Below are positions 22,611 to 53,104 of a DNA stretch of 64,000 bases, one piece after another; the stretch's first letter is position 1, and every line of letters begins with the position of its first letter. Below the pieces are notes generated by a model, which was given only the letters and a program-made list of their open reading frames with translations, searched no databases and was not told the DNA's origin. This stretch comes from Bacteroidia bacterium (GTDB lineage: Bacteria > Bacteroidota > Bacteroidia > AKYH767-A > OLB10): contig JAEUTH010000021.1 in the NCBI GenBank assembly GCA_016788165.1, positions 153,046 through 217,045 on the forward strand, read 5' to 3'. The position numbers were made by a program, and so were the translations under genes.

Positions 22611-22612
22611 TC

Positions 22613-28882: not shown

Positions 28883-28892
28883 CTTAGTTATA

Positions 28893-34278: not shown

Positions 34279-35379
34279 TTATTTAGAGTTTCCGCCTGTA
34301 ATATCTAACCAAACAGCCGTTACTAGAATTAAACCTTTAATTATATCCTGGGTAAAATCTTCAATATTTAATAAGCTCATACCATTATCCAGCGAGGCCA
34401 TTATTAGCGCACCTAAAAGCGCACCGGGTATAGTGCCTTTACCTCCTAACAGGCTTGTGCCGCCTATTACGCAAGCTGCAATGGCATCTAACTCTAAATT
34501 ACGGCCTGCATTGGCAGTTGCATTACCTAATTGTGCCGTGTATAAAATACCGGCTACTGCTGCAAGTATCCCCATTATTATGTAAACAAATAACAAGTTG
34601 GATTTTATATTGATGCCTGAATAGAATGCAGCTTCGGCATTGCCACCGGCAGCATAAACATAGCGCCCAAAGGGTGTTTGCATTGCAATAAATGCAATGG
34701 TTGCTGCAACCATTAACAAAACCAAAACCGGAATGGGCAAACCTTTATATGAGTTTATGTAGGTAAAAAATAAAACGGTTAGCAGGCTTAGGCTTAGCGT
34801 AATCAAACCAGCCGTGGCTATGCTTTTATTGTTTTTACGAAGCGTGAAAAAGTATTTTATAAATGATGCTAATGAAACAGCAATTAAAATATAACTAAGC
34901 CATAAAGGCAGATAACCACTACCGGTGTACTGCATGGCATCGCTTAAAGGTCCTACGGTTTCGCCTTTGGTTAAGCCTTTTACTATACCTCTGTAAATAA
35001 GCATGCCTCCTAATGTTACTATAAAAGCAGGTATTTTTTGATAGGCAATAAGGTAGCCGTTTATAATACCCAAAACTATACCTGTTAAGACGGCCAAAAC
35101 AATTGCAAGTGGTGTTGTTAAACCCCACCATACATTGGCTATTGCAGTAATACCGCCTGTAAGCGCAACCATCGAACCAATGCTTAAATCAATATGACCG
35201 GCTACAATTATGAGCACCATGCCCGAAGCCAAAATGCCTACAATAGCGGTTTGGCGCATAAGGTTTGTAAAGTTGCGGCTATTTAAAAATACTCCGTCAG
35301 TTACAATAGAAAATAATAACCAAATGCCGATTAATGCAAAAAGCATGATGTACGGTCTGATATTAATAGCTTTTATCAT
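34279..35379 (-). CDS. sugar ABC transporter permease (XylH/AraH-type)
   Basis: 366 aa BPD_transp_2-type permease with about 10 TMs. Confidence 0.8.
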   Translation of the reverse strand: MIKAINIRPYIMLFALIGIWLLFSIVTDGVFLNSRNFTNLMRQTAIVGILASGMVLIIVAGHIDLSIGSMVALTGGITAIANVWWGLTTPLAIVLAVLTGIVLGIINGYLIAYQKIPAFIVTLGGMLIYRGIVKGLTKGETVGPLSDAMQYTGSGYLPLWLSYILIAVSLASFIKYFFTLRKNNKSIATAGLITLSLSLLTVLFFTYINSYKGLPIPVLVLLMVAATIAFIAMQTPFGRYVYAAGGNAEAAFYSGINIKSNLLFVYIIMGILAAVAGILYTAQLGNATANAGRNLELDAIAACVIGGTSLLGGKGTIPGALLGALIMASLDNGMSLLNIEDFTQDIIKGLILVTAVWLDITGGNSK

Positions 35380-35397
35380 ATAGAATCAAAATAAAAA

Positions 35398-36903
35398 TCA
35401 ATGTTGTGCTGTGGCGTAATGCATAATACTTTCGGCTGAATAGGGTGTTTCGAAACTTCCGTTTATGGTTCCATTATTCATAACATAAATTGTGTCGCAT
35501 AAGCCCATTAGCTCGGGTAGTTCGGAACTTACCATAAGTATGCCTACACCTGTGGCTGCTAAATTTTGAATGATGGTGTAAATTTCGGCTTTGGCACCAA
35601 TATCAATACCTCTGGTAGGTTCGTCTAAAATCAATAAAGACGGTTTGGTTAATAACCATTTTGCTAAAACTACTTTTTGCTGATTGCCTCCACTTAAGTG
35701 CGCAACCGGTTGCTTCGCATTATGAATTTTAATTTTTAATTGTGCAACACTTTGTGTGGTTGCCTGTTGAATGGCTTTGTTTTGAATTAAAAAGTTTTTA
35801 GAAAAAGTTTTTAATGCAGCTAAAGTTGTATTGGCTGAAATGCTTTGTTGCAATATGAGTCCGAAACGTTTTCTGTCCTCGCTTACCAATGCCAATCCAT
35901 TTTTTATTGCCTGACGCGGATTTTTAGGAAAGTGTTTTAATTCATTCAGCGTTATTTGGCCATCACATTTACCCGCCCATGCACCAAAAATTGTTTCAAC
36001 TAACTCGGTTCGACCTGCACCCATTAAACCGGCAATGCCCACAATTTGATTACTGTGTACGGTTAACGATACATTTTTAATAATCGGTTTATTGGTTTTG
36101 GGATGCCAGGTATGGAGGTTGCTTATCTGTAAAATTTGCTTGCCGGGCTTACGTAATTGTTTATTATACAAATCGGATAGTTGACGCCCAACCATGCTTT
36201 TTATAAGTGCCTCTTCGTCAATACTACTTGCGTTGTATGTACCAACCGATTCGCCATCGCGCAGTACGGTAATGCTTTGGGCAACGTGAAGTACTTCATT
36301 TAGTTTGTGTGATATAATAATAGCCGTAAGGCCTTGCACACGTAATTTTTTTAAAATCTGTAACAGGTTTTCTGATTCGGTTTCGGTAAGGGCTGCAGTG
36401 GGTTCATCTAAAATAAGCAACTTAGCTTTTTTTGATAAGGCTTTAGCAATTTCAACCATTTGTTGTATGCCCACTCCGCAATCCTTTATCTTGGTTTGTA
36501 CATTTAAGCTTACACTTAACGATTGCATTAATGCAGTTGCCGCTGCAATTGTTTTATCCCATTGTATGATTCCTTTGTTGCAAATTTCGCGGCCTAAAAA
36601 AATATTTTCGGCTATGGTCATTTCAGGTACTAAAGCAAGTTCCTGTGCTATGATGGCAATGCCAGCATGCTCTGATTGACTAAGGTTTTTAAATCGAACT
36701 TCTTGTCCGTTCCAAATAATATTGCCGCCATAAGAACCGTACGGATATACACCCGATAAAATTTTCATCAGTGTTGATTTGCCGGCACCGTTTTCGCCAC
36801 AAAGGGCATGTATCTCGGCCGGAGCAACACTAAAGCTGATATTTTTTAATGCCTGAACATTGCCAAAACTTTTGGTAATGTTTTGCATTTGTAATGCATA
36901 CAT
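35398..36903 (-). CDS. sugar ABC transporter ATP-binding protein (duplicated NBD, XylG/MglA-type)
   Basis: 501 aa with two nucleotide-binding domains (GENGAGKST; LSGGNQQK; LILDEPT appears twice). Confidence 0.85.
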   Translation of the reverse strand: MYALQMQNITKSFGNVQALKNISFSVAPAEIHALCGENGAGKSTLMKILSGVYPYGSYGGNIIWNGQEVRFKNLSQSEHAGIAIIAQELALVPEMTIAENIFLGREICNKGIIQWDKTIAAATALMQSLSVSLNVQTKIKDCGVGIQQMVEIAKALSKKAKLLILDEPTAALTETESENLLQILKKLRVQGLTAIIISHKLNEVLHVAQSITVLRDGESVGTYNASSIDEEALIKSMVGRQLSDLYNKQLRKPGKQILQISNLHTWHPKTNKPIIKNVSLTVHSNQIVGIAGLMGAGRTELVETIFGAWAGKCDGQITLNELKHFPKNPRQAIKNGLALVSEDRKRFGLILQQSISANTTLAALKTFSKNFLIQNKAIQQATTQSVAQLKIKIHNAKQPVAHLSGGNQQKVVLAKWLLTKPSLLILDEPTRGIDIGAKAEIYTIIQNLAATGVGILMVSSELPELMGLCDTIYVMNNGTINGSFETPYSAESIMHYATAQH

Positions 36904-36913
36904 AATTGTAGGG

Positions 36914-37918
36914 TTATTGCATTTTTAATTCAGTTGCTTTAATGTAACCATCGGCAATAACCGTTTGCTTCACATTGTTTTTATCTACTGCTACCGGTGC
37001 AAGTAGTAGTGCACTAACTTCTTTTTTACCATTGTTAATGGTGCGTGTTGTGGCTGCTGTTGGTTTATTTTCGGCTAAAGCTATTGCTGCTTCGGCACCG
37101 GCATAGGCTAATTGTTTTATAGGTTTGTAAACCGTCATACTTTGAACACCATCAATAACTCTTTGTACGGCAGCAAGCTCGGCATCTTGTCCGCTAACGG
37201 GAATTTTTCCGGCCAATTGTTGTTCTGTTAATGCTTGTATGCAGCCTCCGGCTAACCCATCGTTGGCAACTAAAATGGCAGCAATGTTATTGTTGTTTTT
37301 GGTCAATGCATTTTGGGTTTGTTTATAAGCTTCAATAGGCAACCAATCTTTGCAATATTGCTCCATCACAATGGTTATGTGTCCACTATCAATTAAAGGT
37401 TTAAGTATTTGCATGTGGCCTTTATTATATAAAAAAGCATTTTCATCAGTTGCCGAACCTTCTACCAACATATAATTGCCTTTAGGGGCTAAGCCAACCA
37501 AAGTTTGTGCTTGTAAAACACCCACTTGTTCATTGTCGAATGAAACGTATAAATCCAAATCACAATCTTTAATCATCCTATCGTATGCAATTACTTTTAT
37601 ACCTGCTTCTTTTGCGCTGTTTACAGCTTTTGCAGCGGTTTTACTATTGTGCGGCACTATTACTAAAACATCAACTCCTTGTGTAATTAAATTTTCAACT
37701 TGTTCGTTTTGTAATTGTTCATTACCGTTACAAACTTGCCTTATTACGGTAGCACCTAACTGAGCGGCACGCTCTTCAAAAAACTGCCCGTCTTTTTTCC
37801 AACGTTCTTCGGTGTAGGTATCCATAGCTAAACCTATGGTAAGTTTTTTGGTTTTTGAACTATTACAATTGTATGTAACTATAAGTAGGAGGGCATAAAA
37901 AAGCCATTTGTTTTTCAT
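36914..37918 (-). CDS. periplasmic monosaccharide-binding protein (XylF/ChvE family)
   Basis: 334 aa with a signal peptide and a Peripla_BP_4-like two-lobe sequence. Confidence 0.75.
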   Translation of the reverse strand: MKNKWLFYALLLIVTYNCNSSKTKKLTIGLAMDTYTEERWKKDGQFFEERAAQLGATVIRQVCNGNEQLQNEQVENLITQGVDVLVIVPHNSKTAAKAVNSAKEAGIKVIAYDRMIKDCDLDLYVSFDNEQVGVLQAQTLVGLAPKGNYMLVEGSATDENAFLYNKGHMQILKPLIDSGHITIVMEQYCKDWLPIEAYKQTQNALTKNNNNIAAILVANDGLAGGCIQALTEQQLAGKIPVSGQDAELAAVQRVIDGVQSMTVYKPIKQLAYAGAEAAIALAENKPTAATTRTINNGKKEVSALLLAPVAVDKNNVKQTVIADGYIKATELKMQ

Positions 37919-37943: not shown

Positions 37944-39500
37944 TTAAGGCCAAGCTATCATGCTTGCATAGGGGGCTAAAGTAAAAGTATTGTGGTTTGA
38001 TTTCGAACTAAAATTTGAACTAAAAATTACATTATTAAAATGCTGTGGCAGGCTGCTTTTTTCGATGGTAATGTTTTTGCTCGAAAGATTGTGCATTATA
38101 AGTAGTGGGTTATTTTCGAAACTGCGTATATAAATTAATATAGATTGGTTTTGTGTTTGTACCGGAATTATGTTGCCAAATGCCAAGGCAGCATTATGAT
38201 TTCTTAAGTTGATTAGTGCTTTGTAATGTTGTAAAGTGCTGTTTATTGTTTGTTGTTGAATACTAACCGGTGCTACCTGTAATGGTTTATTATATTTATG
38301 TTTTAGCCACTTACATTGATTGCTATCTTTTTCATGACTCCATAACATAGGTTCGCGCAAATATTCATCTGGCTTTTTACCTAACATACCCAACTCTTCG
38401 CCATAGTAAATAAACGGACTACCGGGTAGCGTTAACAGGATGGAAGCAGCTAGCTTAATTTTTTTTGCATCGCCATTTAATGTACTTGCAATACGGTTTT
38501 GGTCGTGATTTGAAAGAAAGGTAGCTTCAATAAAATTAGGGTTCGCTTTTTCGTACACATCTATCATTTGCTTTACTTTAAAAGGCAAATGCATGTTTCT
38601 TTCATTAATTAATACATCAATAATATGTTGTGCTAAATCGAAATTAAAAACGGCATCAATTCCATTTGCTAAGTAGGGCGCAGCATACATGTGTGCTTCG
38701 GTAACTTCGGCTAAAAGAAATACATCGGGTTTAACGGTTCTTAATGCATTACTATACTCATGCCACCATTGTAATGTTTTATTTGTATCGGTTTTTGGAT
38801 AAATCCACATTGCAGCATCTAATCTAAAACCATCTAAGGCAGTATGCGTAAGCCAGTATTTTCCAACATCAATCATGGCTTGCCTTACTTGTTGGTTGTC
38901 GTAATTAAAATCGGGCATACCATCCCAAAAAAATGCATAGTATGCTGCTGTACCATCATCAAATTTATGAGGCTTAAAGGGCTTAACGCCTCTTAGTTTT
39001 GGTATGTACCAATGATTGATTTCTGTTTCAATATTTTCGACAGCCGACCACACAAAGAAATCGCGATATGGGCTGGTTAAGCTATCGCGCGCACTTAAAA
39101 AATACGGATGCTTATCGCTGCAATGATTTATAACCATATCCATAATTACTGCTATACCACGGTTATGTGCTTGTTCGATTAAGTTATTTAAATCGGCTAA
39201 GGTGCCGTATTGCGAGTCAATACGATAGTAGTCAATTACATCGTATTTGTGATAGGAGTATGATGCTAAAATGGGTGTAAGCCAAATACCGCGTATGCCT
39301 AAATCTTTTATGTAATCAAGTTTTTGTGCGATACCGTTTAAATCGCCAATGCCATCATTATTGCTATCGGCAAAACTGTGTACAAAAATCTGATAGTAAA
39401 CCACATTTGGAAACTGATTTGTTTCGGGCGCTTGGTTATTGTGTTGTGCACCTGTTTTATTAATCATGAGCAGAAGAATGAAAAGAAATTTTTTCATCAA
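37944..39500 (-). CDS. secreted GH13 alpha-amylase-family glycoside hydrolase (alpha-glucosidase/oligo-1,6-glucosidase-like)
   Basis: 518 aa with a signal peptide and GH13 conserved regions (GIWLTPI, GFRLDAA, EVT..., FLSNHD). Confidence 0.85.
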   Translation of the reverse strand: MMKKFLFILLLMINKTGAQHNNQAPETNQFPNVVYYQIFVHSFADSNNDGIGDLNGIAQKLDYIKDLGIRGIWLTPILASYSYHKYDVIDYYRIDSQYGTLADLNNLIEQAHNRGIAVIMDMVINHCSDKHPYFLSARDSLTSPYRDFFVWSAVENIETEINHWYIPKLRGVKPFKPHKFDDGTAAYYAFFWDGMPDFNYDNQQVRQAMIDVGKYWLTHTALDGFRLDAAMWIYPKTDTNKTLQWWHEYSNALRTVKPDVFLLAEVTEAHMYAAPYLANGIDAVFNFDLAQHIIDVLINERNMHLPFKVKQMIDVYEKANPNFIEATFLSNHDQNRIASTLNGDAKKIKLAASILLTLPGSPFIYYGEELGMLGKKPDEYLREPMLWSHEKDSNQCKWLKHKYNKPLQVAPVSIQQQTINSTLQHYKALINLRNHNAALAFGNIIPVQTQNQSILIYIRSFENNPLLIMHNLSSKNITIEKSSLPQHFNNVIFSSNFSSKSNHNTFTLAPYASMIAWP

Positions 39501-39682: not shown

Positions 39683-41263
39683 TTAATAACCGGGATTTTG
39701 AACCAGGTTTTTGTTCACTGCTAAATCGGCTGCAGGTATGGGATATAAATTTAAATGACCGGATGTAGCATTACCGGCAACACTACCTCCTTTGTATGGC
39801 CATAAATAATTGCCACCGGTAAATAAGCCGTAACGAATTAAATCGGTTCTGCGGGTACATTCCCAATATAATTCGCGTGCGCGTTCTTTTAGTAAAAATG
39901 GTAAATCAACGGTAGTAACCTGGCCAGATGTATTACCAAAGGCACGATCGCGTAGCGCATTAATGTAAGCAGTAGCTTGTGCCATATTGCCGCCTCCGCC
40001 TCTAACAGTAGCTTCGGCATACATGAGGTAAACATCTGCTAATCTGAACAATGGGAAATCGGTATCCACAAAATTACCGGCAGGGTCGCTGCCTTTTATG
40101 CCATTACGATCAACGTTACGCCATTTATTAACAGCATAACCATCTTCAAAAGTTTTTAGTTCGGCTATGTCATAATTTTGACCATCAATATGGAACATAT
40201 ACCTTTTGTCAACTGCCGAGTCGTTATCAAACGAGCTTACCAAACCTTTGGTGGTACGTAAACCAAACCATCCACCGTTAACACCAAAATCATCATCGTT
40301 CATAGTGCCGCCAATTGCTGCATGAATAATAAAGGTTGTACCACCATAAGTTTGTGTGCGTAAACCATCGGATGTGATAGGAAATATTACTTCTGTTGAT
40401 TTGTGATTATCGGCCAAAAACAACCAATTATAATTAGCATCCAATGTATAGCCTCCTGCAATTACTTTATTACAATAAGTAATACAATCATTATATCGTG
40501 CTGTACCAGTATATACTTCGGCATTAAGGTATAAACGTGCAAGTAATGAAGCGGCAGCAGCTTGGTCGGCACGGCCATATTCATTTTGGCGCGGTGCAAT
40601 CATCAGCCCTTCTATGGCTTTTAATTCCGATTCTACATAATTGAAAAGTTCTGTTCGGCTTGCTTCGCGTGGGTCGTAAGAGCCAACGCCATCGCTTTCA
40701 GTAACAAATGGGCCTTTACCATATAAATCAAGCTGATAGTAATAGGCAAGGGCACGTATAAAGCGGGCTTCGTTTCTAAACTGCTTAATTTCGTTAACCT
40801 GCGAGTCGGTAAACCCACGTCCATTTAACTTGCCATCTTCTGTTTCGCGTATAAATTCATTACACATGGCAATTTCGAAATAAATGCGTTGGTACATACT
40901 GGTAACAAAACTGTTATCATTACTCCAGGTTTGTTGATTTAAATCAGGAATACCAGGGTCAGTCCAGCCGCATACTGCTTCATCGGTAGGTAATTCTTGT
41001 AAATTCCATAAGGCACGGATAAAACTCGAAAAACCTTCATCACCTGTTCCAAAATCGGGCGAACCTGCCGGGCCTCTGTTACCGGTAAGTATCAGTCCAC
41101 CATATATTTTTGCCAAAACGCTTCGGTAGTTTTCGGCTTTGCTATAAACCGATTCGGCATTTAAACCGTATTTAGGGGTCATGTCCAAATCCTTGTAACA
41201 TGATGTAAACATCAATGTTAAACAGGCTATGGCTATTGCTTTAGATTTGAAATTCGTATTCAT
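39683..41263 (-). CDS. SusD/RagB family nutrient-binding outer-membrane lipoprotein
   Basis: 526 aa with a lipoprotein signal (FTSCYKD). SusD-like TPR-rich fold; directly downstream of SusC. Confidence 0.8.
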   Translation of the reverse strand: MNTNFKSKAIAIACLTLMFTSCYKDLDMTPKYGLNAESVYSKAENYRSVLAKIYGGLILTGNRGPAGSPDFGTGDEGFSSFIRALWNLQELPTDEAVCGWTDPGIPDLNQQTWSNDNSFVTSMYQRIYFEIAMCNEFIRETEDGKLNGRGFTDSQVNEIKQFRNEARFIRALAYYYQLDLYGKGPFVTESDGVGSYDPREASRTELFNYVESELKAIEGLMIAPRQNEYGRADQAAAASLLARLYLNAEVYTGTARYNDCITYCNKVIAGGYTLDANYNWLFLADNHKSTEVIFPITSDGLRTQTYGGTTFIIHAAIGGTMNDDDFGVNGGWFGLRTTKGLVSSFDNDSAVDKRYMFHIDGQNYDIAELKTFEDGYAVNKWRNVDRNGIKGSDPAGNFVDTDFPLFRLADVYLMYAEATVRGGGGNMAQATAYINALRDRAFGNTSGQVTTVDLPFLLKERARELYWECTRRTDLIRYGLFTGGNYLWPYKGGSVAGNATSGHLNLYPIPAADLAVNKNLVQNPGY

Positions 41264-41274
41264 TTTTATAGCTA

Positions 41275-44235
41275 TTAAAATTGAAAGTTTAAATTGATTG
41301 AGTAAATACGTGGGCGTGGGTATATGTTTTGATCAATACCGCCACCAACTTCTGGGTCGAGGCCGGCATAATCAGAAATGATAAATACATTTTGAACATT
41401 AAACGAAGCAACCATATTGTATTTATCTTTAATTAAGTTTTTAAAGTTGTAGGCTAAACTTACATAGTCCAGTTTAATAAAATCGGCTGAGCGTAAGTAG
41501 TAATCAGAAAAATATTGCTCTTTTTTAAATCCGGTATTTAAGTAATCGGTTGATAGATTGCTAAGTGCTTTAACCGAGCCACCCATGCCTGCCAAATTTC
41601 CTCTGATAGAAGCAACGTTGTAATAAATATAGTGACCAAACTCGCCACGTAAACTTGCGCCCAACGACCAGTTTTTGTAGGTAACATTGGTATTTAAACC
41701 AACTAAATATTTGGCATCGGGGCGGTGCTTACGCACCAAATCATTTTCATTAATTTTTCCATCGTTGTTTTGGTCAATGTATTGACCTTCTTTAGGCTTT
41801 CCGTTTGCATCGTAAATTTGCTCATAAACATAAAATGTATTGGGTGCGTAGCCTACCGTATGTACTTGAATGGTATTGTTTATACCGCCTTGTATGCCGC
41901 CCACTTTAATGCCAACTTCGCTTTCGGAACTTGCTCCGGTAATCTTAGTTATTTTACCATTGTTGGTGCTAAAGTTTGTTCCAATTTCCCATGTAATTTT
42001 ATCTGTGGCAACCGGTATAAAGTTAAGGGTAACTTCTAAACCTTCATTCTCCAAACTACCTACATTGGTAAGTACACTGTTACCAAAATTGGTACCTGCA
42101 GCAGGTGCAGCATTCACAATTAAATCTTTGGTTTCTTTTCTATAAACATCAACAGCACCGTTTATCCGACCATTAAAAAAGCCGAAATCTATACCTGCAT
42201 TGGTAGTAGTAGTTTCTTCCCACTTTATAAATTTATCATAAGCATCGGGTCGTAACACATAGTAATACTGGCTACCAAACTGGTATTGAGCCGTATTGTT
42301 TCCTTGGCTGTAGTTTGCTATGTATGGGTAGTCGTTATTGATGTCTTGCTGTCCGGTAACACCATACCCTAAACGAAGTTTTAAGATTGATAACCAGCTA
42401 ACATCTTGCAAAAATGTTTCATCGCTTATACGCCATGCAAATGCGGCCGATGGAAATAAGCCATGGCGCAAATCTTTATCAAAGCGTGATGATGCATCAT
42501 CACGTAAAGTAGCCGTAAACAAAAATCGTTTAAACAATGTGTAATTAATCCTGCCATAAACAGAGATTAATGCATTTTCGGTAAATGATGGCACCGGTAT
42601 GCCGGGTAACGTATCGCCTGCAGCATTGCGGCTGTAAAATGCCGGACTTTCAGAACTCCAATATTGATAGGAGTATCCTGCTGTTAAATCCAATCGGTTA
42701 TTGGGATTAAACTCTTTATTGTAATTCAAATAGAAGTCAAACAGTTTATTGTCTTTGCTTTGCTCATATTGTGTTTGGCTACCCTTAGTTGTATAGGCCG
42801 ATGCGGCCGCGGCCGATGTAAAGGTACTACCGTGACTGCGGCTAATATCACCACCCACATTAACATGAGCGCGTAAGCCTGGTAAAAATTTGAATTTGTA
42901 GTCAAGCCCGGCATTACCAATAAAACGATTTACAAATCCTTTATCATCACGTAAGTTTAATAGCCCCATTGGGTTTCGGGCTGCTACAACAATGGGTTTT
43001 TTAGAATTATCCAACCATTCAAAATAGCCGCCATAAGCAGTTGTATCACTGTAAATATTTTGAGTAGGATCAAAACCTACTGCCGATCCAATTGCGCCTT
43101 GGTCGGGAAAGAAATTATAAGTGGTACTGTATTTTGCATTCACTTCTAATGTTAAACTATTATCGAAAAATGAAGGGTTTAAATTTATGCCCACCGATTT
43201 ACGATCCATTTGCGAGTACTGCAGGGTGCCGGCATTGCTTAATAAGCCAAACGATAAGCGATATGGTAATCCTTTTATGCCTCCGGTAAAACTGATATTA
43301 TTATCGCTGGTTAGCGCGTTACGGTAAATTTCGCTTTGCCAGTTGGTTACCGATTTGCCTAAAAGCCCTTTTTGCGTATTGGTACCATTTGCCATCACCA
43401 CATTTCTAAACTCATCAGCACTAAGCACATCGGTATAATCGGCAACGGTTGAAATGGCAAAATTGGTGTTAAAGTCAACATGGAACGATGAAGCGGAACC
43501 TTTTTTAGTAGTTATGATAATCACACCATTAGCTGCTCTTGCCCCATAAATAGCCGCAGCTGACGCGTCTTTTAACACAGTCATATTTTCAATGTCGTTA
43601 GGGTTAATTAAACTTAAACCATTAGGCGCACCACTAATGCCATTGTTATCCAATGGTACACCATCAACAACAATTAAAGGATCATTGCTTGCATTTAATG
43701 ATGTACCACCTCGAATACGAATGCGGCTTCCCGAACCAGGAGCACCACCATTGGTAGTAATTTTTACACCGGCAGTTTTACCTTGTATTAATTGCTCAGG
43801 TGTGGCAATAATACCTTTATTAAACTCTTTAGCATTTACACTGGCTACTGAACCTGTTAAATCTTTTTTCTCAGTTGTTCCATATCCAATTGCTACTGCC
43901 TGGTTCAGGAGTATAACATCTTCCTTTAAAGTGAAATTAAGTTTGGTTTGTTTACCTTCACTAATACTTACCTGTTGGGTAACTGATGTATAGCCAATAA
44001 AACTGGCAACAACGTTGTATGTGCCCGGCTTTACTTGTTTAATTAAATAGTTGCCATCCATATCTGCCACACTGCCTTGCGTAGTGCTGCTAATCGAAAT
44101 TGAAACAAATGGAATGGGTTGATTGGAGGCATCAGTTACAGTACCGCCAATACTGCCGGATTGGCCATAGCTTAGTGTAAATGATACACCAAGTAAAATA
44201 AGCCATAAAAATTGGCGTAAGTAGTTTTTTTGCAT
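41275..44235 (-). CDS. SusC/RagA family TonB-dependent outer-membrane transporter
   Basis: Carboxypeptidase-regulatory-like N-terminal domain, TonB box/plug, a 22-strand barrel, and a C-terminal aromatic (NLNFQF). Preferred start is ATG 44233-44235 (MQKNYLRQ...) rather than the TTG at 44295. Confidence 0.85.
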   Translation of the reverse strand: MQKNYLRQFLWLILLGVSFTLSYGQSGSIGGTVTDASNQPIPFVSISISSTTQGSVADMDGNYLIKQVKPGTYNVVASFIGYTSVTQQVSISEGKQTKLNFTLKEDVILLNQAVAIGYGTTEKKDLTGSVASVNAKEFNKGIIATPEQLIQGKTAGVKITTNGGAPGSGSRIRIRGGTSLNASNDPLIVVDGVPLDNNGISGAPNGLSLINPNDIENMTVLKDASAAAIYGARAANGVIIITTKKGSASSFHVDFNTNFAISTVADYTDVLSADEFRNVVMANGTNTQKGLLGKSVTNWQSEIYRNALTSDNNISFTGGIKGLPYRLSFGLLSNAGTLQYSQMDRKSVGINLNPSFFDNSLTLEVNAKYSTTYNFFPDQGAIGSAVGFDPTQNIYSDTTAYGGYFEWLDNSKKPIVVAARNPMGLLNLRDDKGFVNRFIGNAGLDYKFKFLPGLRAHVNVGGDISRSHGSTFTSAAAASAYTTKGSQTQYEQSKDNKLFDFYLNYNKEFNPNNRLDLTAGYSYQYWSSESPAFYSRNAAGDTLPGIPVPSFTENALISVYGRINYTLFKRFLFTATLRDDASSRFDKDLRHGLFPSAAFAWRISDETFLQDVSWLSILKLRLGYGVTGQQDINNDYPYIANYSQGNNTAQYQFGSQYYYVLRPDAYDKFIKWEETTTTNAGIDFGFFNGRINGAVDVYRKETKDLIVNAAPAAGTNFGNSVLTNVGSLENEGLEVTLNFIPVATDKITWEIGTNFSTNNGKITKITGASSESEVGIKVGGIQGGINNTIQVHTVGYAPNTFYVYEQIYDANGKPKEGQYIDQNNDGKINENDLVRKHRPDAKYLVGLNTNVTYKNWSLGASLRGEFGHYIYYNVASIRGNLAGMGGSVKALSNLSTDYLNTGFKKEQYFSDYYLRSADFIKLDYVSLAYNFKNLIKDKYNMVASFNVQNVFIISDYAGLDPEVGGGIDQNIYPRPRIYSINLNFQF

Positions 44236-44290
44236 AATACTTCGTTTGGTTTTAATTAAAATTTTAAACGTATTAGGGGGATTCGAACCT

Positions 44291-44313
44291 GACAATAAAA
44301 AAAGTATTATTGT
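44291..44313. promoter_or_regulatory. perfect 8-bp inverted repeat gacaataa-N7-ttattgtc upstream of susC
   Basis: Seen directly in the sequence, about 56 nt upstream of the susC ATG. Candidate operator or 5' hairpin. Confidence 0.25.
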
Positions 44314-44644
44314 CTATGGCAAAGTAATTGATTGGCTTTTAAAAAAACAATAACTATTGATAATGTTTTATAAATTAAATGGCTCTGCATTATACTAACG
44401 AGATATTTTGATACCAGAAAGCAACCTTGAAATTTTTGCTGCATTTCAATTGTTTACAAATAAGTTGGTCTGTTAAAAACCGCTTACAATATCATTACAT
44501 GAATTATATTTAAAAATATATTTTTGGCGGCCTCATTTTAAAATTTCTGAAGCCTATAAAGTATTAACGCCTTTCTAACAAAAGTCATTTAGTATTTTAT
44601 TGTTTTAACCACTATTAATTAACTAAGAAATTAAATATCAATAT

Positions 44645-47600
44645 ATGAAAAAAGGTTATACGAATTTGTTTACGGTTCTGTTTATGTTTTTGTGTTTGGT
44701 AACGCAAGCGCAATTAAAAGATGCACATACTAAAATTAACGCAACTGATGCACAACAAGAAGTTGCCGACATTAATGCAGCACTTAAAAATGGATCAAAT
44801 GCTTTAATGGCTTTAGATAGCATACCTCAGTGTAGTGCTGTTTGGACTTATGGTGGTGGTACAGGTGTTGTCCCCGATAACAACAGCAACGGCTTAACCA
44901 TGAATTTTAATATTAATGATATAGCCGGAACTAACTTAGGTACGGATGTTAATTTAGTTGGCGTATCAATTACCTTACAACATTTTAGAATTGGCGATAT
45001 AAGTATCGAGTTAATTGCTCCAAATGGTGTTAAAATTCCTTTGGTTGATCGTATGGGGTATCCGGCAACTTTACCTTATGGCTGTACCGGTAAAAATATT
45101 AATGCCACATTTTTAAGAGGTACCGGTGCCGAGGCCGAAAACGTTTGTGCTACACCACCCCCGGCTTTGAAAGGTGTTTACTCAGCCGATTTTGGTTTTA
45201 ATTTAGACAGTATAAACTTAGCCGGTGGTTCACCTAATGGCCAGTGGAAATTAAAAGTATATGATGCACAGGCAGGTGAAATTGGTTATGTTTTGAATTG
45301 GAAAATGTATTTCGACCAACAACCACCCAATGCCGTATTTACAACCAATGCTATTGGCTTATTTGTAAGCCTTAATGCACAAAACACATTAAATGGAAAT
45401 GCAACCTATATATGGGAGTTTGGTGATGGCGATAGTGCGGTTGGCCAATCTGTTACACATCAATATCCGGTCCGTGGCCAGTACACCATTAAACTATTGG
45501 TAATTGATGCTTGTGGAATTGATTCGGCCAAAGCTACCTACAGCTTAGAACCTCCACCATGTTTTGCCGAATTTCCTTCAACAACAACACCTACACCTAT
45601 TACCGATAATAACCCTGCCGGTGATACTTTAGTTATTAATACCAACCAGGTAATTGGTTCAAAATTGGGCAAAGATGTGCAACTTCGTAAAGTTTGTATT
45701 CAGGGTACACATCCAAGGGTTGGCGATTTAAAAATGAAATTGATTTCGCCCGGAGGTGTCGAAATTTTATTTATTGACCGAACTTATTATCCATTTCAGC
45801 AGCCTTACGGTTGTTTAAATTCTGATTTTAACTACTGCATTATTCATGGCGATTCATTAGATGGAGAATTTAAATGTGATGCAACCGGTGCCGCAATTAA
45901 AGGCGAATTTACAGCCATGACGCCTCAGGATTTGCGTCAGGTAAACGATTTAGTTACCAACCCAAATGGTGCTTGGAAATTAGTAGTTTATGATATGGCA
46001 GCCGGGCAAACCGGTGTTGTAACTAATTGGAGCCTTTTGTTTGACCAACAAGACCCTGATGCAGATTATACTTATACATTTAGTGGCTTAACGGTTGATA
46101 TTACTTCTAAAAATTTGCCTGCCGTTAACTACCGTTGGGATTTTGGAGATGGTACACCAATTGACACCAACAAAAGCCCTTCGCATACATATGCTACACC
46201 CGGCACTAAAACAATAACCGTATATACTGATAATGTTTGTAGCCGCGATACTTTGGTACGTAACATAACCCTTTATGCTTGCGAAGAACAATTTGTATAT
46301 CCATCGGTACCGGTTGCCATTCCAGATATTGATTCAACCGGAATACTTATACCTTTTAATATTACAGGTGTTGATGGCGTTAATCTGGGAGTTGATGCAT
46401 TTATAACCCGTGTTTGTATTACCAGCGACCATATATGGCCGGGCGATTTAAAAATACAACTAATAGCTCCTAATGGTAAAGTAGTGCCTATTATTAATCA
46501 ACCTACGCGCGCATTAACTTTAGCAGGTTGCGGTGCACCGGGAATTGATATGTGTATTGTGCAGGGAAGCGGAAACGATACACGCTTCGTTTGCGACTAC
46601 GTAAATGCACCTCCGGCAATAAAAGGGTTTTATACTGCCAATGCCGGCTACCCTCTCGAATCAATAAATTTGGCAGGAGGTAACCCCAATGGCACCTGGT
46701 ACTTAAATGTATTTGATTATGCATTATTTAAAACGGGAAATATTACCAGTTGGAGTTTATATTTTGGTAAACTAAAGCCAAACGTAGATTTTACATATAC
46801 AGCGAACGATTCAGGGCTTGCATCATTCACTATACCAAATGCATCAACCAATTATTTATGGGTTTTTGATAATGGTGATACAAGTACCAGCCTAACACCT
46901 ACACATCAATATCCAGCTAATGGCATATATCAGGTAAAATTAATTGCAATCGATTCGCTTTGTTTAAGCGATTCGATTGTTAAGGATGTTTACATCACCT
47001 CTTTTAACAGAGGTTGTGTTTCACCATTTGTATATCAGGGTACAGCAGTTCCAATTGCCGATGCCGATTCGGTAAACGGATCCGTTTTAAACTTTAATGT
47101 AAGTGGTGTTTTAGGAGATACCTTAGGCACCAACGTAAACCTTTATCGCGTTGCCGTTAAAGGTAAACATGGCAGGGTAGGCGATTTAAAATTCAAACTA
47201 ATTGCACCCAATGGCTTAAGCACAATTTTAGTTGATAGGCCCGGTTACCCAACAACAAACGAAGGTTGCTTACAACGTGATTTTCAATTTATTTTAAGTA
47301 ATGGGCAAGGAGCCAACTTAGAAACTATGTGTAATGAAACCGGATTGGCATTGTTTGGTAATGTGTTATCAGATAAAGCTAACGATTTAGGTACTATCAA
47401 TTTTGGTGGTGGAAACCCAAATGGCATTTGGCAATTAGTTGTTTATGATTATAAAACCGATTGGATAGGTCAAATTGATGGATTGTCTCTTTACTTCGAT
47501 GGGCAGCCTACACATGCCGACTTTATTTACAACATTAAAAAAGATACCGTTGTTTTCAGACATGCAGCGCCATTAAATGCAACAACCAAATGGAGTTTTG

Positions 47601-50600
47601 GTGATGGTACTTTTAGCAATAACCGATTCCCTACTAAAATTTATGCTGATACAGGTATGTATCAGGTGCAGTTGATTGTTACAGATACTTGTGGCATGGA
47701 TTCAATTACCCAAATTGTTCATATAACAGAAGTAAGACCCAAGTGCGTAGATGTAAGAAGATATGTTGGCCCTAAAAACATTCCGAATAATAATCCGGCA
47801 GGTGTTTATATCAACCTGAACTTAAATAATGTGATAGGAAACACATTAGGTAAGGATGTAAGTTTAGTGCGTGTGCGACTAAAAGGTAGAATTACCAAAG
47901 TAGGCGACTTAACGGCTAAGCTTATTGCACCAAATGGAAAGGCTGTTGATTTGTTTCACCGTGTTGGACATCCCGCCAAACCATTAGGCTGCGAACGCGA
48001 TAACTTTGATATAAATTTTGTTAGAGGCTTTGGCCCGGGTGCTGAGCTAATATGTAATACCGTTGGTACTGCATTAGCAGGTACGGTAACAGCAATGGCA
48101 GGCCAAAACTTAGACTCTATTAATATTATGGGCGGTAGCCCCAACGGTAATTGGCAATTGTTTATGAGTGATTTGTCAGCCAATGCTTTTGGCGAACTGG
48201 ATACTTTTGAACTGTATTTTGACGCCCAGGGTTTTGTAAATGCTGATTACAACTACAGTCAATCTTTAACTACCTATACATTTAATTCGGCAAACATTGC
48301 AGGTGTACAGTACCAATGGAATTTTGGTGATGGCACAAGTGCTGCCGGTAGTACAGTTGCACATCAATTTGCTGCTTCAGGCACTTATAATGTTACGTGT
48401 TATGCAAAAGATTCATGCCGCACCGATAGTATCACCAAAATTTTTGTAGTAAATAACTATGATGAACCGGCTACATGTAAAACCACATTAACCGCTACCA
48501 ACTTACCATTATCAATTCCTAATAATGTAACATCAGGAATTGATGTAACTATAAATGCAACTAATTTATCAGGCGCCACATTAGGTGTTGATGTAAATTT
48601 GTATAAGGTTAAAGTAATTGGAACTCATGATAGAGTAGGCGATTTAATAATAACACTAACCGCTCCAAACGGCCGAAAGGTTACGCTAATGGATCGTCCT
48701 GGTTATCCTAATACAATAAATGGTTGTGGTGGCGATAATTTTGATTTTAACGTAATCAGAGGTGTGAATGCATCTGTAGAAAATGCATGTGTGCCTGCAT
48801 CAATTCCATCTATAGCCGGTACATTTAGTGCCGAAGCCGATAATTTAGATTCGATAAATATTTTAGGTGGCAATCCAAATGGCCTTTGGACTTTAAACAT
48901 CAGCGATAACAATGCAACCGTTGGTGGTGGTACCATAACCGGATTCGAATTACTGTTCGATAAACAATCTACTGCTTTAGCAACATTTAATACATCCGTT
49001 TTTGCTAATGAACTAACAGCAACAATACCGGTTGAAACTGGCGTTACCTATACTTGGAATTTTGGCGATGGCAATACTGCGACCGGAGATAGTGTTTGGC
49101 ATGCTTATGCTATGCCGGGCGTTTATACCGTAACATTGCAAGCTGCCGATTCTTGTGGTTTCAATCAAACTACACAACAAATTACAGCAGGTAATTATCC
49201 GATAGAAGCTTGTACCAAAACCTACCTTGCCGATTCGCTACCTAAAGCCATTCCTGATAATGATACTACAGGCGTATATGCCTATTTCCAATTAAATAAT
49301 GTAATTGGTAATACACTTGGCAGTGATGTAAAACTTACCGGAGTTTGTATTAAAGGCAATCACACAAAAGTTGGCGATTTAAAAATTACACTCATTGCAC
49401 CTAATGGCAAATCGGTATTATTGATGGACAGACCCGGTTTTCCGGCTGTGGGAGGTTGTTCCGGAAACGATTTTAATTATTGTGTAGTAAGAGGTATTGG
49501 TAACAGCGTTGAAAATGTTTGTAATGCAAGTGTTCCTACAATTAGCGGAACCTATACCGCTATGCAAGGTTTTAACCTTGACTCGATTAACGTAGCCGGA
49601 GGTTCGCCAAATGGTTTATGGACTCTTTTTGTACAAGATGTAGCACCTGCTAATTCAGGTGGAAATTTAACTGGATTTAATTTAACCTTCGATAATCAGC
49701 AAGGGGTTAATGCAGCATTTACTTACAATGTTGCCGGAAATGGTATGCAGTTTAATTCCCCCAATCAGCCCAATGCAATTTACAATTGGAGTTTTGGCGA
49801 TGGACAAACATCAACATCGGCTACGCCAATAAATTATTATGCACAAAGTGGCACATATACAGTTGTTTTGGTTGCTACCGATAGTTGTGGTACCGACTCA
49901 ACTACACAAGTAGTTAATGTATTTGTTTATCCCGAACCTACCTGTACACGTACGTTTACATTAAACAGTGCACCTGTACCCATGCCCGATAATATTGCAC
50001 CGGGAGCAATTATTGGTGCAACCTTAGCCGGCATTGATGGTACCAATTTAGGTTCTGACGTAAACCTTACCGGAGTTTGTGTTTCGGGCAAGCACACTAA
50101 CGTGGGCGATATACGATTGGTTTTAGTTGCACCAAATGGCGCTACTATAAATTTAATGAATCAGCCGGGCGCACCTGCTTTGCCTAAAGGATGTAGTGGC
50201 GATGATTTTGATGTTTGCTTTATAAGAAATACCGGATTTTATTTGGAAGATACATGCCGCAGTACGATTCCTGCAATTGAAGGCACATTTACTGCTTCCA
50301 ATGGTTTCGACTTACAAACCGTAAATACAACAGGAGGCAATCCAAATGGCTTATGGCGCTTGTTTGCTGCTGATTTAGCACCTTTAGATACCGGTGAAAT
50401 TACTTCAGTAACGCTCACATTTGATAATCAGATTTTAACCAATGCTGCTTTTACTTATAGTTTAAATAATAATGAGTTGCAGTGCACCAGTACACCTTCA
50501 CCTAATGCTACATATCAGTGGACCTTTGGCGATGGCAGCACCAGCACCGATGCAAACCCAATTTATACTTACAATACAAATGGTTTCTTCAATATAACAC

Positions 50601-53104
50601 TTACAGTAACTGATACTTGTGGCATAAAAACAACATCACAACCTGTAACCGTATTTTACTATCCTGAGCCTACTTGTGTTACATCTATTCCTTTTACAGG
50701 CCTGCCCGTTGCAATACCAAATTTTGACACAACAGGTGTAACAGTTACACTAAATGTTAATGGTATTGATGGTACAAACTTAGGTACAGATGTTAATATA
50801 GTTGGTGTTTGTATTAATGGAACGCACCCCAAAGTTGGTGATTTGCGTGCTGTGCTGGTTTCACCGGCAGGTGTTGCCGTTGATTTGATGAACCGTCCGG
50901 GTTTTCCGGGTGTAGCATGTTCGGGCGATGATTTTGATTTTTGCGTAATCAGAGGTATTAATAATTCGAATGAAAATGTTTGTGATATAGTATCGCCTGC
51001 AATTAGCGGTAATTATACTGCCATGGAAGGTTTTAACCTGGATACCATCAACATGGTAGGTGGTAACCCTAACGGGCAATGGCAATTAATTTTGTATGAT
51101 TTAGCCAATGGTAATTTAGGCGATCTGGTATCGGCAAGTTTGCAGTTTGATAAGCAAAACAATGTAAATGCTGTATTTGCAATTTCTCAAAATGGCAATA
51201 CGGTTCAATGTAATTCAGCAAATGCAACCAACACCAATTACAACTGGACATTTAGCGATGGGTTTACGAGTACCGATGCCAACCCTTCGCATAATTTTGC
51301 ATTAACCGGTAGCTATACAATTACCTTAGTTGCAACCGATAGTTGCGGTACAGACTCTACATCACAACAAGTTAGTATTGTAACATACGCTCCTGCTACT
51401 TGCGCTAAGTCGTTCGATTTTACTACTGTAGCAACACCAATAACAGATAATGATGTAACGGGTATAACATTGCCATTAAACATAAATAATGTAGTTGGTC
51501 AGTTAGGTACCGATGTTAGTTTGGTAAGTATTTGTATTAATGGTACACATACCAATGTAGGCGATTTAAAAATGGAGCTTATTGCCCCTAATGGCAAAGT
51601 GGTTCAACTTATTGATCAGCCGGGCTATCCAGCCGGTACAACTGGTTGTACGAGTGATGATTTTAATTTCTGTATCGAACGTGGCATAGGTGCCGATGCC
51701 GAAAATGCATGTAATGCAACAGCACCTGCTATTTCAGGTCCTTATACAGCTATGAACGGTTACAACCTCGATTCGATAAACATTGCAGGTGGTGCCGCCA
51801 ATGGTTTATGGCAACTGGTTGTATATGATTTATTGCCGGGCGAAACTGGTGAGGTCTTAAACGCACAACTTGTATTTGATAATCAACCTCAGGCTAATGC
51901 CAATTTTGCTTCATCCATTAATGCATATACAGTAACATTAACAGCAGCTAACATACCTAATACAACTTATACATGGAGTTTAGGCGATGGTAATACCGCT
52001 TCAGGTAGTAGTGTAATTCATAATTATATTAGTAATGGTGCTTATGTAATAACGCTTACTGCAACCGATTCCTGCGGAAGCGTAAGTACTATTCAAGGTG
52101 TAATAATAAACGAACCTATTACCTGCGAACGTACTTATACCTATGCACCGGTACCTCAAAGCATACCTGATAACGATTCGAACGGTGTTGTATTAAGCTA
52201 TAATTTAAATGGTGTTTCAGGAAATAATTTAGGAGTTGATGTCCGTTTAACAGGTGTTTGTGTTAGTGGTACACACAGTAGGGTAGGCGATGTGGCAATA
52301 AATCTTACGGCACCTAATTTGAAATCAGTTTCGTTAATGGATAGACCCGGTTACCCTGCAACTACTATGGGTTGCGCTACTCCAAACTTTGATTTTTGTA
52401 TTTTAGGTGGCATTGGTTTAGACAATGAAGCAGCTTGTAATGCAACAGCACCGGGCATCAGCGGCAATTTTGTTGCCTTAAATGATAATTTGGATTCGAT
52501 AAATTATTTTGGTGGCAATCCTAATGGAACCTGGTTGTTAAAAGTAACCGATACCAATATAGGCGAAACCGGAAGCATTGATGCATTTACATTGTTATTC
52601 AATGGTCAGCCACCCGTTGCAGATTTTACTTATGTAATTAATGGCTATGACGTAACGTTTACAGGACCAACATTAGCCAATGCAACCTACTCGTGGAACT
52701 TTGGCGATTTGGGTACTTCGAACCTCCAAAATCCTACACACACATATGCAAGTAATGGTTCTTATCAGGTGGTACTTACTGTAACCGATTCGTGCGGTAC
52801 CACATTAAGCATTGCTGTATTGCCAATTACTGTTGGAATTAATGAATTGCAAAGTAATTTGTTGCATGTAGTGCCAAACCCTGCTCACACATTTATTGAT
52901 GTATTGGTTAAAAATTCAAATGCTGAGAATATGGATATAACCATTTCGAATAGTATCGGCCAAGTAGTGTTTGCACAACATATTGACGAAAATAAAAATC
53001 AGTTTACACAACGCATTAATTGTAGCGAGTGGGCTAAAGGTATTTACTACATAAAACTTTTTACGCCTACTGGCATAAAGCAACATAAATTGGTTATTCA
53101 ATAA
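44645..53104 (+). CDS. giant T9SS-secreted repeat protein with 11 tandem [proprotein-convertase P-domain + PKD] modules
   Basis: 2,819 aa with a signal peptide. The P-domain signature recurs 11 times (IGDISIELIAPNG ... VGDVAINLTAPNL). Each is followed by ..INxxGGNPNGxWxLxVxD.. and then a PKD-like WNFGDG..YTVTL.ATDSCG segment. C-terminal T9SS type-A sorting domain. Confidence 0.85.
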   Translation: MKKGYTNLFTVLFMFLCLVTQAQLKDAHTKINATDAQQEVADINAALKNGSNALMALDSIPQCSAVWTYGGGTGVVPDNNSNGLTMNFNINDIAGTNLGTDVNLVGVSITLQHFRIGDISIELIAPNGVKIPLVDRMGYPATLPYGCTGKNINATFLRGTGAEAENVCATPPPALKGVYSADFGFNLDSINLAGGSPNGQWKLKVYDAQAGEIGYVLNWKMYFDQQPPNAVFTTNAIGLFVSLNAQNTLNGNATYIWEFGDGDSAVGQSVTHQYPVRGQYTIKLLVIDACGIDSAKATYSLEPPPCFAEFPSTTTPTPITDNNPAGDTLVINTNQVIGSKLGKDVQLRKVCIQGTHPRVGDLKMKLISPGGVEILFIDRTYYPFQQPYGCLNSDFNYCIIHGDSLDGEFKCDATGAAIKGEFTAMTPQDLRQVNDLVTNPNGAWKLVVYDMAAGQTGVVTNWSLLFDQQDPDADYTYTFSGLTVDITSKNLPAVNYRWDFGDGTPIDTNKSPSHTYATPGTKTITVYTDNVCSRDTLVRNITLYACEEQFVYPSVPVAIPDIDSTGILIPFNITGVDGVNLGVDAFITRVCITSDHIWPGDLKIQLIAPNGKVVPIINQPTRALTLAGCGAPGIDMCIVQGSGNDTRFVCDYVNAPPAIKGFYTANAGYPLESINLAGGNPNGTWYLNVFDYALFKTGNITSWSLYFGKLKPNVDFTYTANDSGLASFTIPNASTNYLWVFDNGDTSTSLTPTHQYPANGIYQVKLIAIDSLCLSDSIVKDVYITSFNRGCVSPFVYQGTAVPIADADSVNGSVLNFNVSGVLGDTLGTNVNLYRVAVKGKHGRVGDLKFKLIAPNGLSTILVDRPGYPTTNEGCLQRDFQFILSNGQGANLETMCNETGLALFGNVLSDKANDLGTINFGGGNPNGIWQLVVYDYKTDWIGQIDGLSLYFDGQPTHADFIYNIKKDTVVFRHAAPLNATTKWSFGDGTFSNNRFPTKIYADTGMYQVQLIVTDTCGMDSITQIVHITEVRPKCVDVRRYVGPKNIPNNNPAGVYINLNLNNVIGNTLGKDVSLVRVRLKGRITKVGDLTAKLIAPNGKAVDLFHRVGHPAKPLGCERDNFDINFVRGFGPGAELICNTVGTALAGTVTAMAGQNLDSINIMGGSPNGNWQLFMSDLSANAFGELDTFELYFDAQGFVNADYNYSQSLTTYTFNSANIAGVQYQWNFGDGTSAAGSTVAHQFAASGTYNVTCYAKDSCRTDSITKIFVVNNYDEPATCKTTLTATNLPLSIPNNVTSGIDVTINATNLSGATLGVDVNLYKVKVIGTHDRVGDLIITLTAPNGRKVTLMDRPGYPNTINGCGGDNFDFNVIRGVNASVENACVPASIPSIAGTFSAEADNLDSINILGGNPNGLWTLNISDNNATVGGGTITGFELLFDKQSTALATFNTSVFANELTATIPVETGVTYTWNFGDGNTATGDSVWHAYAMPGVYTVTLQAADSCGFNQTTQQITAGNYPIEACTKTYLADSLPKAIPDNDTTGVYAYFQLNNVIGNTLGSDVKLTGVCIKGNHTKVGDLKITLIAPNGKSVLLMDRPGFPAVGGCSGNDFNYCVVRGIGNSVENVCNASVPTISGTYTAMQGFNLDSINVAGGSPNGLWTLFVQDVAPANSGGNLTGFNLTFDNQQGVNAAFTYNVAGNGMQFNSPNQPNAIYNWSFGDGQTSTSATPINYYAQSGTYTVVLVATDSCGTDSTTQVVNVFVYPEPTCTRTFTLNSAPVPMPDNIAPGAIIGATLAGIDGTNLGSDVNLTGVCVSGKHTNVGDIRLVLVAPNGATINLMNQPGAPALPKGCSGDDFDVCFIRNTGFYLEDTCRSTIPAIEGTFTASNGFDLQTVNTTGGNPNGLWRLFAADLAPLDTGEITSVTLTFDNQILTNAAFTYSLNNNELQCTSTPSPNATYQWTFGDGSTSTDANPIYTYNTNGFFNITLTVTDTCGIKTTSQPVTVFYYPEPTCVTSIPFTGLPVAIPNFDTTGVTVTLNVNGIDGTNLGTDVNIVGVCINGTHPKVGDLRAVLVSPAGVAVDLMNRPGFPGVACSGDDFDFCVIRGINNSNENVCDIVSPAISGNYTAMEGFNLDTINMVGGNPNGQWQLILYDLANGNLGDLVSASLQFDKQNNVNAVFAISQNGNTVQCNSANATNTNYNWTFSDGFTSTDANPSHNFALTGSYTITLVATDSCGTDSTSQQVSIVTYAPATCAKSFDFTTVATPITDNDVTGITLPLNINNVVGQLGTDVSLVSICINGTHTNVGDLKMELIAPNGKVVQLIDQPGYPAGTTGCTSDDFNFCIERGIGADAENACNATAPAISGPYTAMNGYNLDSINIAGGAANGLWQLVVYDLLPGETGEVLNAQLVFDNQPQANANFASSINAYTVTLTAANIPNTTYTWSLGDGNTASGSSVIHNYISNGAYVITLTATDSCGSVSTIQGVIINEPITCERTYTYAPVPQSIPDNDSNGVVLSYNLNGVSGNNLGVDVRLTGVCVSGTHSRVGDVAINLTAPNLKSVSLMDRPGYPATTMGCATPNFDFCILGGIGLDNEAACNATAPGISGNFVALNDNLDSINYFGGNPNGTWLLKVTDTNIGETGSIDAFTLLFNGQPPVADFTYVINGYDVTFTGPTLANATYSWNFGDLGTSNLQNPTHTYASNGSYQVVLTVTDSCGTTLSIAVLPITVGINELQSNLLHVVPNPAHTFIDVLVKNSNAENMDITISNSIGQVVFAQHIDENKNQFTQRINCSEWAKGIYYIKLFTPTGIKQHKLVIQ

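Follow-up and report, generated by a model that had tools for sequence, protein, structure and literature searches.

The window analysed here, a stretch of 64,000 nucleotides on a contig (JAEUTH010000021.1) of an uncultured Bacteroidia bacterium, contains an open reading frame (ORF) at positions 44645..53104 of the forward strand, referred to below as the giant gene, which encodes a protein of 2,819 residues (~300 kDa). According to the ORF list and its translation this is the sole ORF over the interval and it spans the whole repeat array. The product is laid out as a predicted signal peptide, a leader of ~40 amino acids (aa), 11 modules that each consist of a P-domain followed by a PKD domain, and a type-A C-terminal domain of the type IX secretion system (T9SS); a summary of the features is given in Table 1. 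An exact look-up revealed that the protein is identical to NCBI entry MBL7926611.1, named 'proprotein convertase P-domain-containing protein', from a Bacteroidia metagenome-assembled genome (MAG), and that it is recorded on 11 contigs.

Pfam detected P_proprotein (PF01483) in 11 stretches (326 bits in total) and PKD likewise in 11 stretches (PF18911, PKD_4, 441 bits; PF00801, PKD, 315 bits). In addition, the motifs GDLK..LIAPNG, RPGYP, GGNPNG.W.L, W.FGDG and YTVTL.ATDSCG were found in register in all 11 modules. The chain carries 22 beta-sandwich domains, none of them catalytic. Chance can be excluded as an explanation because the ORF extends over 8.4 kb in DNA of ~38% GC and Pfam E-values go down to 1e-135. 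At the extreme C-terminus a single Por_Secre_tail (PF18962; aa 2744-2818) scored 43.3 bits against a cut-off of 27, and the T9SS type-A sorting domain model TIGR04183 of NCBIfam 41.2 bits against a cut-off of 23. The type-B C-terminal domain (CHU_C, PF13585/TIGR04131) and SprB repeats gave no match in Pfam or NCBIfam. At the other end, the predicted signal peptide has typical n-, h- and c-regions and ends in TQA↓Q; by eye, cleavage is predicted before Gln23, and the A↓Q motif can also be read in three homologues. No lipobox cysteine is present at the end of the signal peptide of the window protein or its homologues. The leader that follows (aa 23-61) has no Pfam match and is too short for a domain.

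Neither Peptidase_S8 nor any other catalytic family was detected by Pfam and NCBIfam in the 2,819-aa protein. We considered a catalytic domain hidden in the N-terminal 100 aa or between modules, and rejected it: residues 62-2819 are fully covered by modules and C-terminal domain, the first 61 residues are predicted signal peptide and leader, and the modules follow each other and are followed by the C-terminal domain without any interval that would be long enough for an enzyme. Thus, the central claims of a first-pass annotation of this DNA, namely 11 tandem P-domain and PKD modules, a terminal type-A T9SS sorting domain and the lack of a protease or other enzyme, were all borne out. Two of its measurements required correction. 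When module borders were set by anchoring on the GDL and W.FGDG motifs, modules started at aa 62, 305, 545, 791, 1032, 1277, 1522, 1766, 2010, 2251 and 2493, which gives a module length and pitch of 240-246 aa (mean 243) instead of ~215 aa; and pairwise identity among the 11 modules was 31-54% (mean 40%) rather than 40-60%. Tandem Repeats Finder detected no DNA-level repeat in the array, which fits old, diverged module copies. From the first to the last, all modules retain four invariant cysteines (module positions 2, 84, 105 and 227), from which we infer that no disulfide extends from one module into another. Within the P-domain the mean frequency of the top residue was 0.60 for loops versus 0.53 for strands, and the short linkers of the modules contain proline.

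An AlphaFold2 model of module 7, for which 32 modules of the window protein and of two homologues were aligned, had a mean predicted local distance difference test score (pLDDT) of 92.2 and a predicted template modelling score (pTM) of 0.77. Each module consists of a P-domain with the furin-type jelly-roll, a fold supported by a structural match, and an Ig-like PKD domain behind it. By sequence, the P-domain is only marginally similar to solved structures (best PDB sequence E-value 0.002). The galactose-binding-like jelly-roll class, in which many carbohydrate-binding modules are placed, also comprises the P-domains. A joint model of modules 7 and 8, based on an alignment of 36 consecutive module pairs, reached a pLDDT of 89 and a pTM of 0.57. 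Together these models suggest that each P-domain and PKD pair folds compactly and that the position of one pair relative to the next is less fixed, so that the chain would resemble beads strung on short linkers with proline and is not demonstrably a rigid rod. The rod-like array envisaged in the first-pass annotation is therefore weakly supported, as the lower pTM of the two-module model leaves the junction without a confident placement. With 22 domains of 3.5-4 nm each, we estimate that a fibre formed by the chain would possibly be ~80 nm long.

P-domains without proteases and relatives of the array

The first-pass annotation took it as established that a P-domain is normally a single accessory domain behind a protease. 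To judge how unusual a multiplied P-domain is, we built a profile from the 11 P-domains and ran it as an exhaustive search over 1.84 billion representative proteins. The profile matched 11,579 of these at E<=1e-3, of which 2,495 reached E<=1e-10 and 110 reached E<=1e-30; the full 168-residue form is spanned by many of the matches, and many of the proteins have several copies. Sixteen of the top matches were domain-scanned, and a protease domain was found in none of them (0/16), nor does any carry or accompany S8. Seven of the 16 are proteins of 590-1,011 aa with PKD and a T9SS tail, in six of which Pfam also calls the P-domain. Another six are larger (1,196-3,676 aa), have a T9SS tail and contain P-domains in at least 3-5 copies where counted, either mixed with K319L-type PKD, HYR, fn3 or SprB repeats or as the only repeat detected. 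One combines a P-domain with Kelch repeats and a T9SS tail, and a T9SS tail was not detected in the remaining two, one of which (P0043) is an incomplete sequence that clusters with the window protein. Judged from these sequences, the picture of a single P-domain behind a subtilisin holds for eukaryotic convertases and not for Bacteroidota, and the uncommon feature here is the strictly periodic array. The literature searched on P-domains in connection with T9SS or Bacteroidetes yielded no experimentally characterised homologue. An analogous mix of jelly-roll and Ig-like domains from other families was observed in an Owenweeksia MAG (locus L035, 2630-19443), where two adjacent T9SS giants of 2,760 and 2,791 aa contain 7-8 MAM, 3-7 fn3 and three PKD domains.

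The strict array was found in five loci only, all of uncultured Bacteroidia (the window, L080, L081, L001 and L082), which represent only three clades of one uncultured lineage. When the genomes of 185,579 species representatives were scanned with the whole protein, L001 was the one true relative among the matches, and 78 loci were alike only through the PKD or C-terminal domain; on inspection, L007, L009 and L035 proved not to be relatives. The P-domain profile, run over 146 loci, matched the four family loci and gave one weak match (L006) only. Two metagenome scans yielded no further orthologues, a word-indexed homologue search with a single P-domain gave no matches, and a search with the module alignment, which returned mostly short PKD fragments, led to L082.

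In the comparison of copy number proposed in the first-pass annotation, relatives had 8, 11 or 13 modules. P0001 and P0002 have 13 (63% identity) and P0003 and P0004 have 8 (54% identity). L082, a JGI contig colinear with the window at 75.7% nucleotide identity, has 11 modules and four frame changes. On that contig (6244-18064) susC and the giant gene are each split by frame changes into several called genes, and all 11 modules are recognisable. Sequencing or assembly error is the more likely cause, because susC is split as well and the 11 modules are otherwise intact; pseudogenisation is unlikely, given that nothing but the four frame changes disturbs the modules.

Modules 1-4 and the last module have positional orthologues in all relatives, at 51-81% identity versus ~35-40% to other modules, and it is the middle block that varies in module number. 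Modules 9/11 and 10/12 of P0001 are 62-63% identical, which indicates a two-module duplication in its middle block. Because of the positional orthology at both ends and the variable middle, the array is to be read as old, with turnover confined to the middle, in agreement with the old duplications postulated before. The comparison with L082 gave a nonsynonymous rate (dN) of 0.095-0.113 and a synonymous rate (dS) of ~1.9, which is near saturation, and hence a dN/dS of ~0.05-0.06 for the giant gene; the values for SusD and the amylase encoded nearby were 0.03 and 0.09, respectively. By these values the giant gene is under purifying selection over its whole length.

The SusC/SusD neighbourhood

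The giant gene is divergent from a cluster that specifies a SusC/SusD pair, a GH13 alpha-amylase and a sugar importer of the ATP-binding cassette (ABC) type (Table 1). The shared intergenic region contains an element of the TAnnTTTG type, the consensus of Bacteroidetes promoters, which may function as such. The top model for the SusD-family protein is starch-binding SusD (NF033071), with a score under that model's cut-off. The window cluster has no SusE/F-like gene in the interval from susD to the amylase gene. The combination of the usual Bacteroidota outer-membrane system, here a starch-type SusC/SusD/GH13 cluster, with an ABC inner-membrane importer (34279-44295, reverse strand) was also observed in L082 and, in part, in L001.

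Table 1. Positions of the giant gene, its parts and the adjacent features (window coordinates unless a locus is named).
Feature	Position	Strand	Remarks
Giant gene, non-catalytic T9SS cargo	44645..53104	+	ORF list, Pfam, exact look-up
Sec signal peptide (predicted), aa 1-22, MKKGYTNLFTVLFMFLCLVTQA	44645..44710	+	read by eye
Short conserved N-terminal leader, aa 23-61	44711..44827	+	motif IN.A.KNG....LD.IP.C, read from sequence
Module 1, P-domain ~168 aa then PKD ~70 aa	44828..45556	+	orthologous to module 1 of P0001/P0003/P0004, 66-78% identity
Module 2 (P-domain and PKD)	45557..46276	+	orthologous at 72-80%
Module 3 (P-domain and PKD)	46277..47014	+	orthologous at 56-81%
Module 4 (P-domain and PKD)	47015..47737	+	orthologous at 51-76%
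Module 5 (P-domain and PKD), first of variable middle block	47738..48472	+	
Module 6 (P-domain and PKD)	48473..49207	+	
Module 7 (P-domain and PKD), modelled singly	49208..49939	+	
Module 8 (P-domain and PKD), modelled jointly with module 7	49940..50671	+	
Module 9 (P-domain and PKD)	50672..51394	+	
Module 10 (P-domain and PKD)	51395..52120	+	
Module 11 (P-domain and PKD)	52121..52852	+	orthologue of last module in all relatives; 62-67% identity to P0001/P0003/P0004
T9SS type-A C-terminal sorting domain, aa 2744-2819	52874..53101	+	PF18962, TIGR04183
Divergent intergenic region common to susC and giant gene, 349 bp	44296..44644	.	
TAnnTTTG-type element TATTTTTG, putative promoter	~44519-44526	+	also in L082
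SusC/RagA-family TonB-dependent transporter	41275..44295	-	TIGR04056 688 bits, cut-off 368; Pfam
SusD-family lipoprotein	39683..41263	-	PF07980, PF14322; NF033071 431.5 bits, cut-off 725
GH13 alpha-amylase, SusG-type C-terminal domain	37944..39500	-	PF00128 321 bits, PF23915 39.5 bits
Sugar ABC importer, downstream of amylase, same direction	34279..37918	-	domain scan
ABC importer periplasmic binding protein (Peripla_BP_4)	36914..37918	-	
ABC importer ATPase (double ABC)	35398..36903	-	
ABC importer permease	34279..35379	-	
GH31 alpha-glucosidase genes in 8-module relatives	L081 7659-10007; L001 7437-9962		

In all five loci (5/5) the 5' end of the giant gene faces the SusC-SusD pair, head-to-head. 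The other neighbours vary. GH13 is present in three of the five loci and absent in L080 and L001, and the downstream flank consists of DUF4230/DinB in the window, L082 and L080, of an ABC ATPase and DUF3089 in L001 and of a type I restriction enzyme in L081. In L001 and L081, furthermore, a GH31 alpha-glucosidase gene lies between susC and the giant gene, on the strand of the latter and overlapping its start by 7 nt; no GH31 gene occupies that position in the window, L082 or L080. The overlap suggests co-transcription, and apparent translational coupling, of GH31 and the giant gene in these two loci. That SusC/SusD adjacency persists through turnover of the other neighbours, together with the apparent GH31 coupling, is the best available clue to function. 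A protease gene was not found near the giant gene in any of the five loci.

Several further features of the window were recorded. Between the giant gene and the convergent DUF4230 gene, a perfect GC-rich hairpin (CCCGGG-loop-CCCGGG) with a T-run at 53115-53131 is probably a shared or bidirectional terminator. The DinB_2 protein (54087-54638, forward strand) matched a YfiT-family bacillithiol transferase model with 210 bits against a cut-off of 160, a hint that this Bacteroidia lineage may use bacillithiol. Two long ORFs had no Pfam family, one of 691 aa (56732-58807, reverse strand) at E<=1e-3 and one of 625 aa (17178-19055, forward strand) at E<=1e-4. Finally, the region 19058-28557 (reverse strand) has the appearance of a capsule or exopolysaccharide region, with a Wzz/GNVR/tyrosine-kinase-type protein (20172..22610) and a GWxTD-domain protein (27094..28557), and is adjoined by tRNA-Ser(TGA) at 28796..28883.

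Possible functions of the giant protein

The first-pass annotation, which had missed the SusC/SusD alpha-glucan neighbourhood, suggested a surface adhesin or a carbohydrate/ligand-binding fibre and considered the function not predictable from known P-domain biology. The neighbourhood offers a more specific lead. Our tentative preference, which we hold at somewhat less than even chances, is that the giant protein is exported by the T9SS and forms a long fibre with a binding role in alpha-glucan uptake by the adjacent locus. In that case Sec would carry the protein across the inner membrane, as expected from what is known of T9SS cargos, the T9SS translocon would recognise the C-terminal domain and move the protein across the outer membrane, and a PorU-type sortase would remove the C-terminal domain, after which the chain would be fixed to the surface or released. 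The protein would then work with the SusC/SusD/GH13 locus, as its gene neighbourhood suggests. Given that neighbourhood and a fold resembling that of carbohydrate-binding modules, the 11 P-domains could provide multivalent, low-affinity binding sites, with the PKD domains as spacers between them. Such a fibre might keep starch-like polymer or particles close to the cell and within reach of the amylase and the SusCD importer, and so fill the role of the SusE/F-type proteins without which this locus is found.

Several observations were counted in favour of this alpha-glucan-binding fibre, among them the architecture of the protein: the dN/dS of the giant gene, close to the values for SusD and the amylase, indicates functional constraint; in the P-domain, conservation of the loops is no lower than that of the strands; the adjacency to SusC/SusD survives turnover of other genes in every locus; a GH31 gene overlaps the giant gene in two loci; and the window cluster has no SusE/F-like gene between susD and the amylase gene. 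A precedent for a T9SS cargo encoded inside a polysaccharide utilisation locus is ChiA of Flavobacterium johnsoniae (PMC5127042).

Other points weigh against it. Pfam and NCBIfam matched no carbohydrate-binding family in the giant protein, and we know of no demonstration of glycan binding for any P-domain. Known surface glycan-binding proteins are lipoproteins, which the giant protein is not, and its type-A C-terminal domain appears compatible with anchoring as well as with release. In the window the giant gene is divergent from susC and not part of the same operon. The adjacency to SusC/SusD could be explained by shared ancestry, the five loci being three clades of one lineage, and the downstream DUF4230/DinB genes shared by the window, L082 and L080 show that some of the synteny is general.

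This last observation also speaks for the explanation that we consider nearly as likely, which is that the protein is a general surface adhesin or fibre for particles, cells or biofilm matrix, unrelated to the Sus genes, whose adjacency would be inherited gene order. Repeated stalk-type domains combined with a surface-targeting signal form the pattern of fibrillar adhesins (concept in PMC9210967), and giant T9SS cargos with several P-domains and PKD, HYR or SprB repeats are widespread. The MAM and fn3 giants of Owenweeksia, moreover, are not beside Sus genes among the ORFs listed, although their neighbours were not domain-scanned. What a general adhesin leaves unaccounted for is that SusC/SusD stays adjacent in all five loci while other neighbours change, and that two of them show apparent translational coupling between a GH31 gene and the giant gene.

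A surface coat or spacer layer, S-layer-like and protective or directed against predation, in which the modules are purely structural, is improbable. Each module position keeps its own identity across lineages, the strong purifying selection over the whole length amounts to more constraint than a simple spacer needs, and nothing indicates self-assembly. In furin, Kex2 and Aeromonas sobria serine protease (ASP), the P-domain, to whose fold that of the domain described here was matched, packs against the catalytic domain and stabilises it. It is nevertheless hardly credible that the giant protein acts as a protease scaffold, its P-domains binding secreted subtilisin-type enzymes in trans or stabilising them, as proposed for the multi-P-domain 'planctosome' anchor protein of Planctomycetes (PMC6461901), since no protease gene lies nearby in the five loci, Pfam detected no cohesin or dockerin domains in the giant protein, and the 16 related P-domain proteins are free of S8.

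If the link of the alpha-glucan-binding fibre to the Sus genes is functional, free-living Bacteroidia would extend glycan capture far beyond the outer membrane by means of a T9SS-exported multivalent fibre, and a first function would be at hand for thousands of protease-free bacterial P-domain proteins that are labelled as related to proprotein convertases. If it is not, this is one more uncharacterised repetitive T9SS surface protein with a misleading 'proprotein convertase' label. A bolder version, in which the array is a new type of surface glycan-binding protein, a T9SS-attached fibre that replaces SusE/F-type lipoproteins, and the P-domain an unrecognised family of carbohydrate-binding modules, we regard as unlikely. 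The Sus link is to be seen as a lead that can be tested, not as a finding, and the protein itself would not greatly surprise a specialist.

Comparison with known systems

In contrast to the kexin/furin-type convertases and ASP (PF01483), the giant protein lacks the subtilisin catalytic domain with its Asp-His-Ser triad and has 11 P-domains instead of one. Its P-domain of ~168 aa is also longer than the PF01483 model (86 columns), outside of which the disulfide-bearing loops fall. The same long P-domain (profile positions 2-166), often followed by PKD and Por_Secre_tail, is present in T9SS proteins from metagenomes such as P0057, P0062, P0041 and P0046, which likewise have no protease domain but contain a single module or irregular mixes with HYR, SprB and fn3. 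The hypothetical 'planctosome' anchoring protein described for Planctomycetes (PMC6461901) is likewise large and secreted, has multiple P-domains and lacks a catalytic domain; it differs in phylum and export route, has thrombospondin repeats between the P-domains as well as cohesin and LTD domains, and its role is unproven.

With respect to the definition of fibrillar adhesins by Monzon & Bateman, the 11 PKD and 11 P-domains constitute a tandem-repeat stalk, but a distinct tip domain is lacking, as module 1 follows the ~40-aa leader. In the fibrillar-adhesin paper a P-domain-like cluster was treated as ambiguous (PMC9210967).

Next to a SusC/SusD pair, as the giant gene is in all five loci, are also found the genes for the surface glycan-binding proteins SusE/SusF of B. 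thetaiotaomicron and SGBP-B of B. fluxus (PDB 7kv5). Those proteins, however, are lipoproteins only a few hundred residues long, with genes downstream of susD, whereas the giant protein is ~10 times larger, is encoded divergently and has a predicted cleavable signal peptide and, instead of a lipobox, a T9SS domain by which it would be targeted to the surface; its glycan binding is only proposed.

As giant repetitive T9SS cargos, SprB and RemA of Flavobacterium johnsoniae and the grappling-hook protein GhpA of Aureispira (PDB 9flp) resemble the window protein. The latter differs from them by its regular unit of P-domain and PKD, and nothing indicates a link to motility or predation. An assignment to the SprB-type adhesins was rejected on the type of the C-terminal domain: these have a type-B (CHU_C) domain and SprB repeats, whereas the domain of the window protein is of type A and SprB repeats are absent. 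As a giant repetitive T9SS cargo the window protein is of a known kind, within which its regular P-domain and PKD form linked to SusC/SusD is rare.

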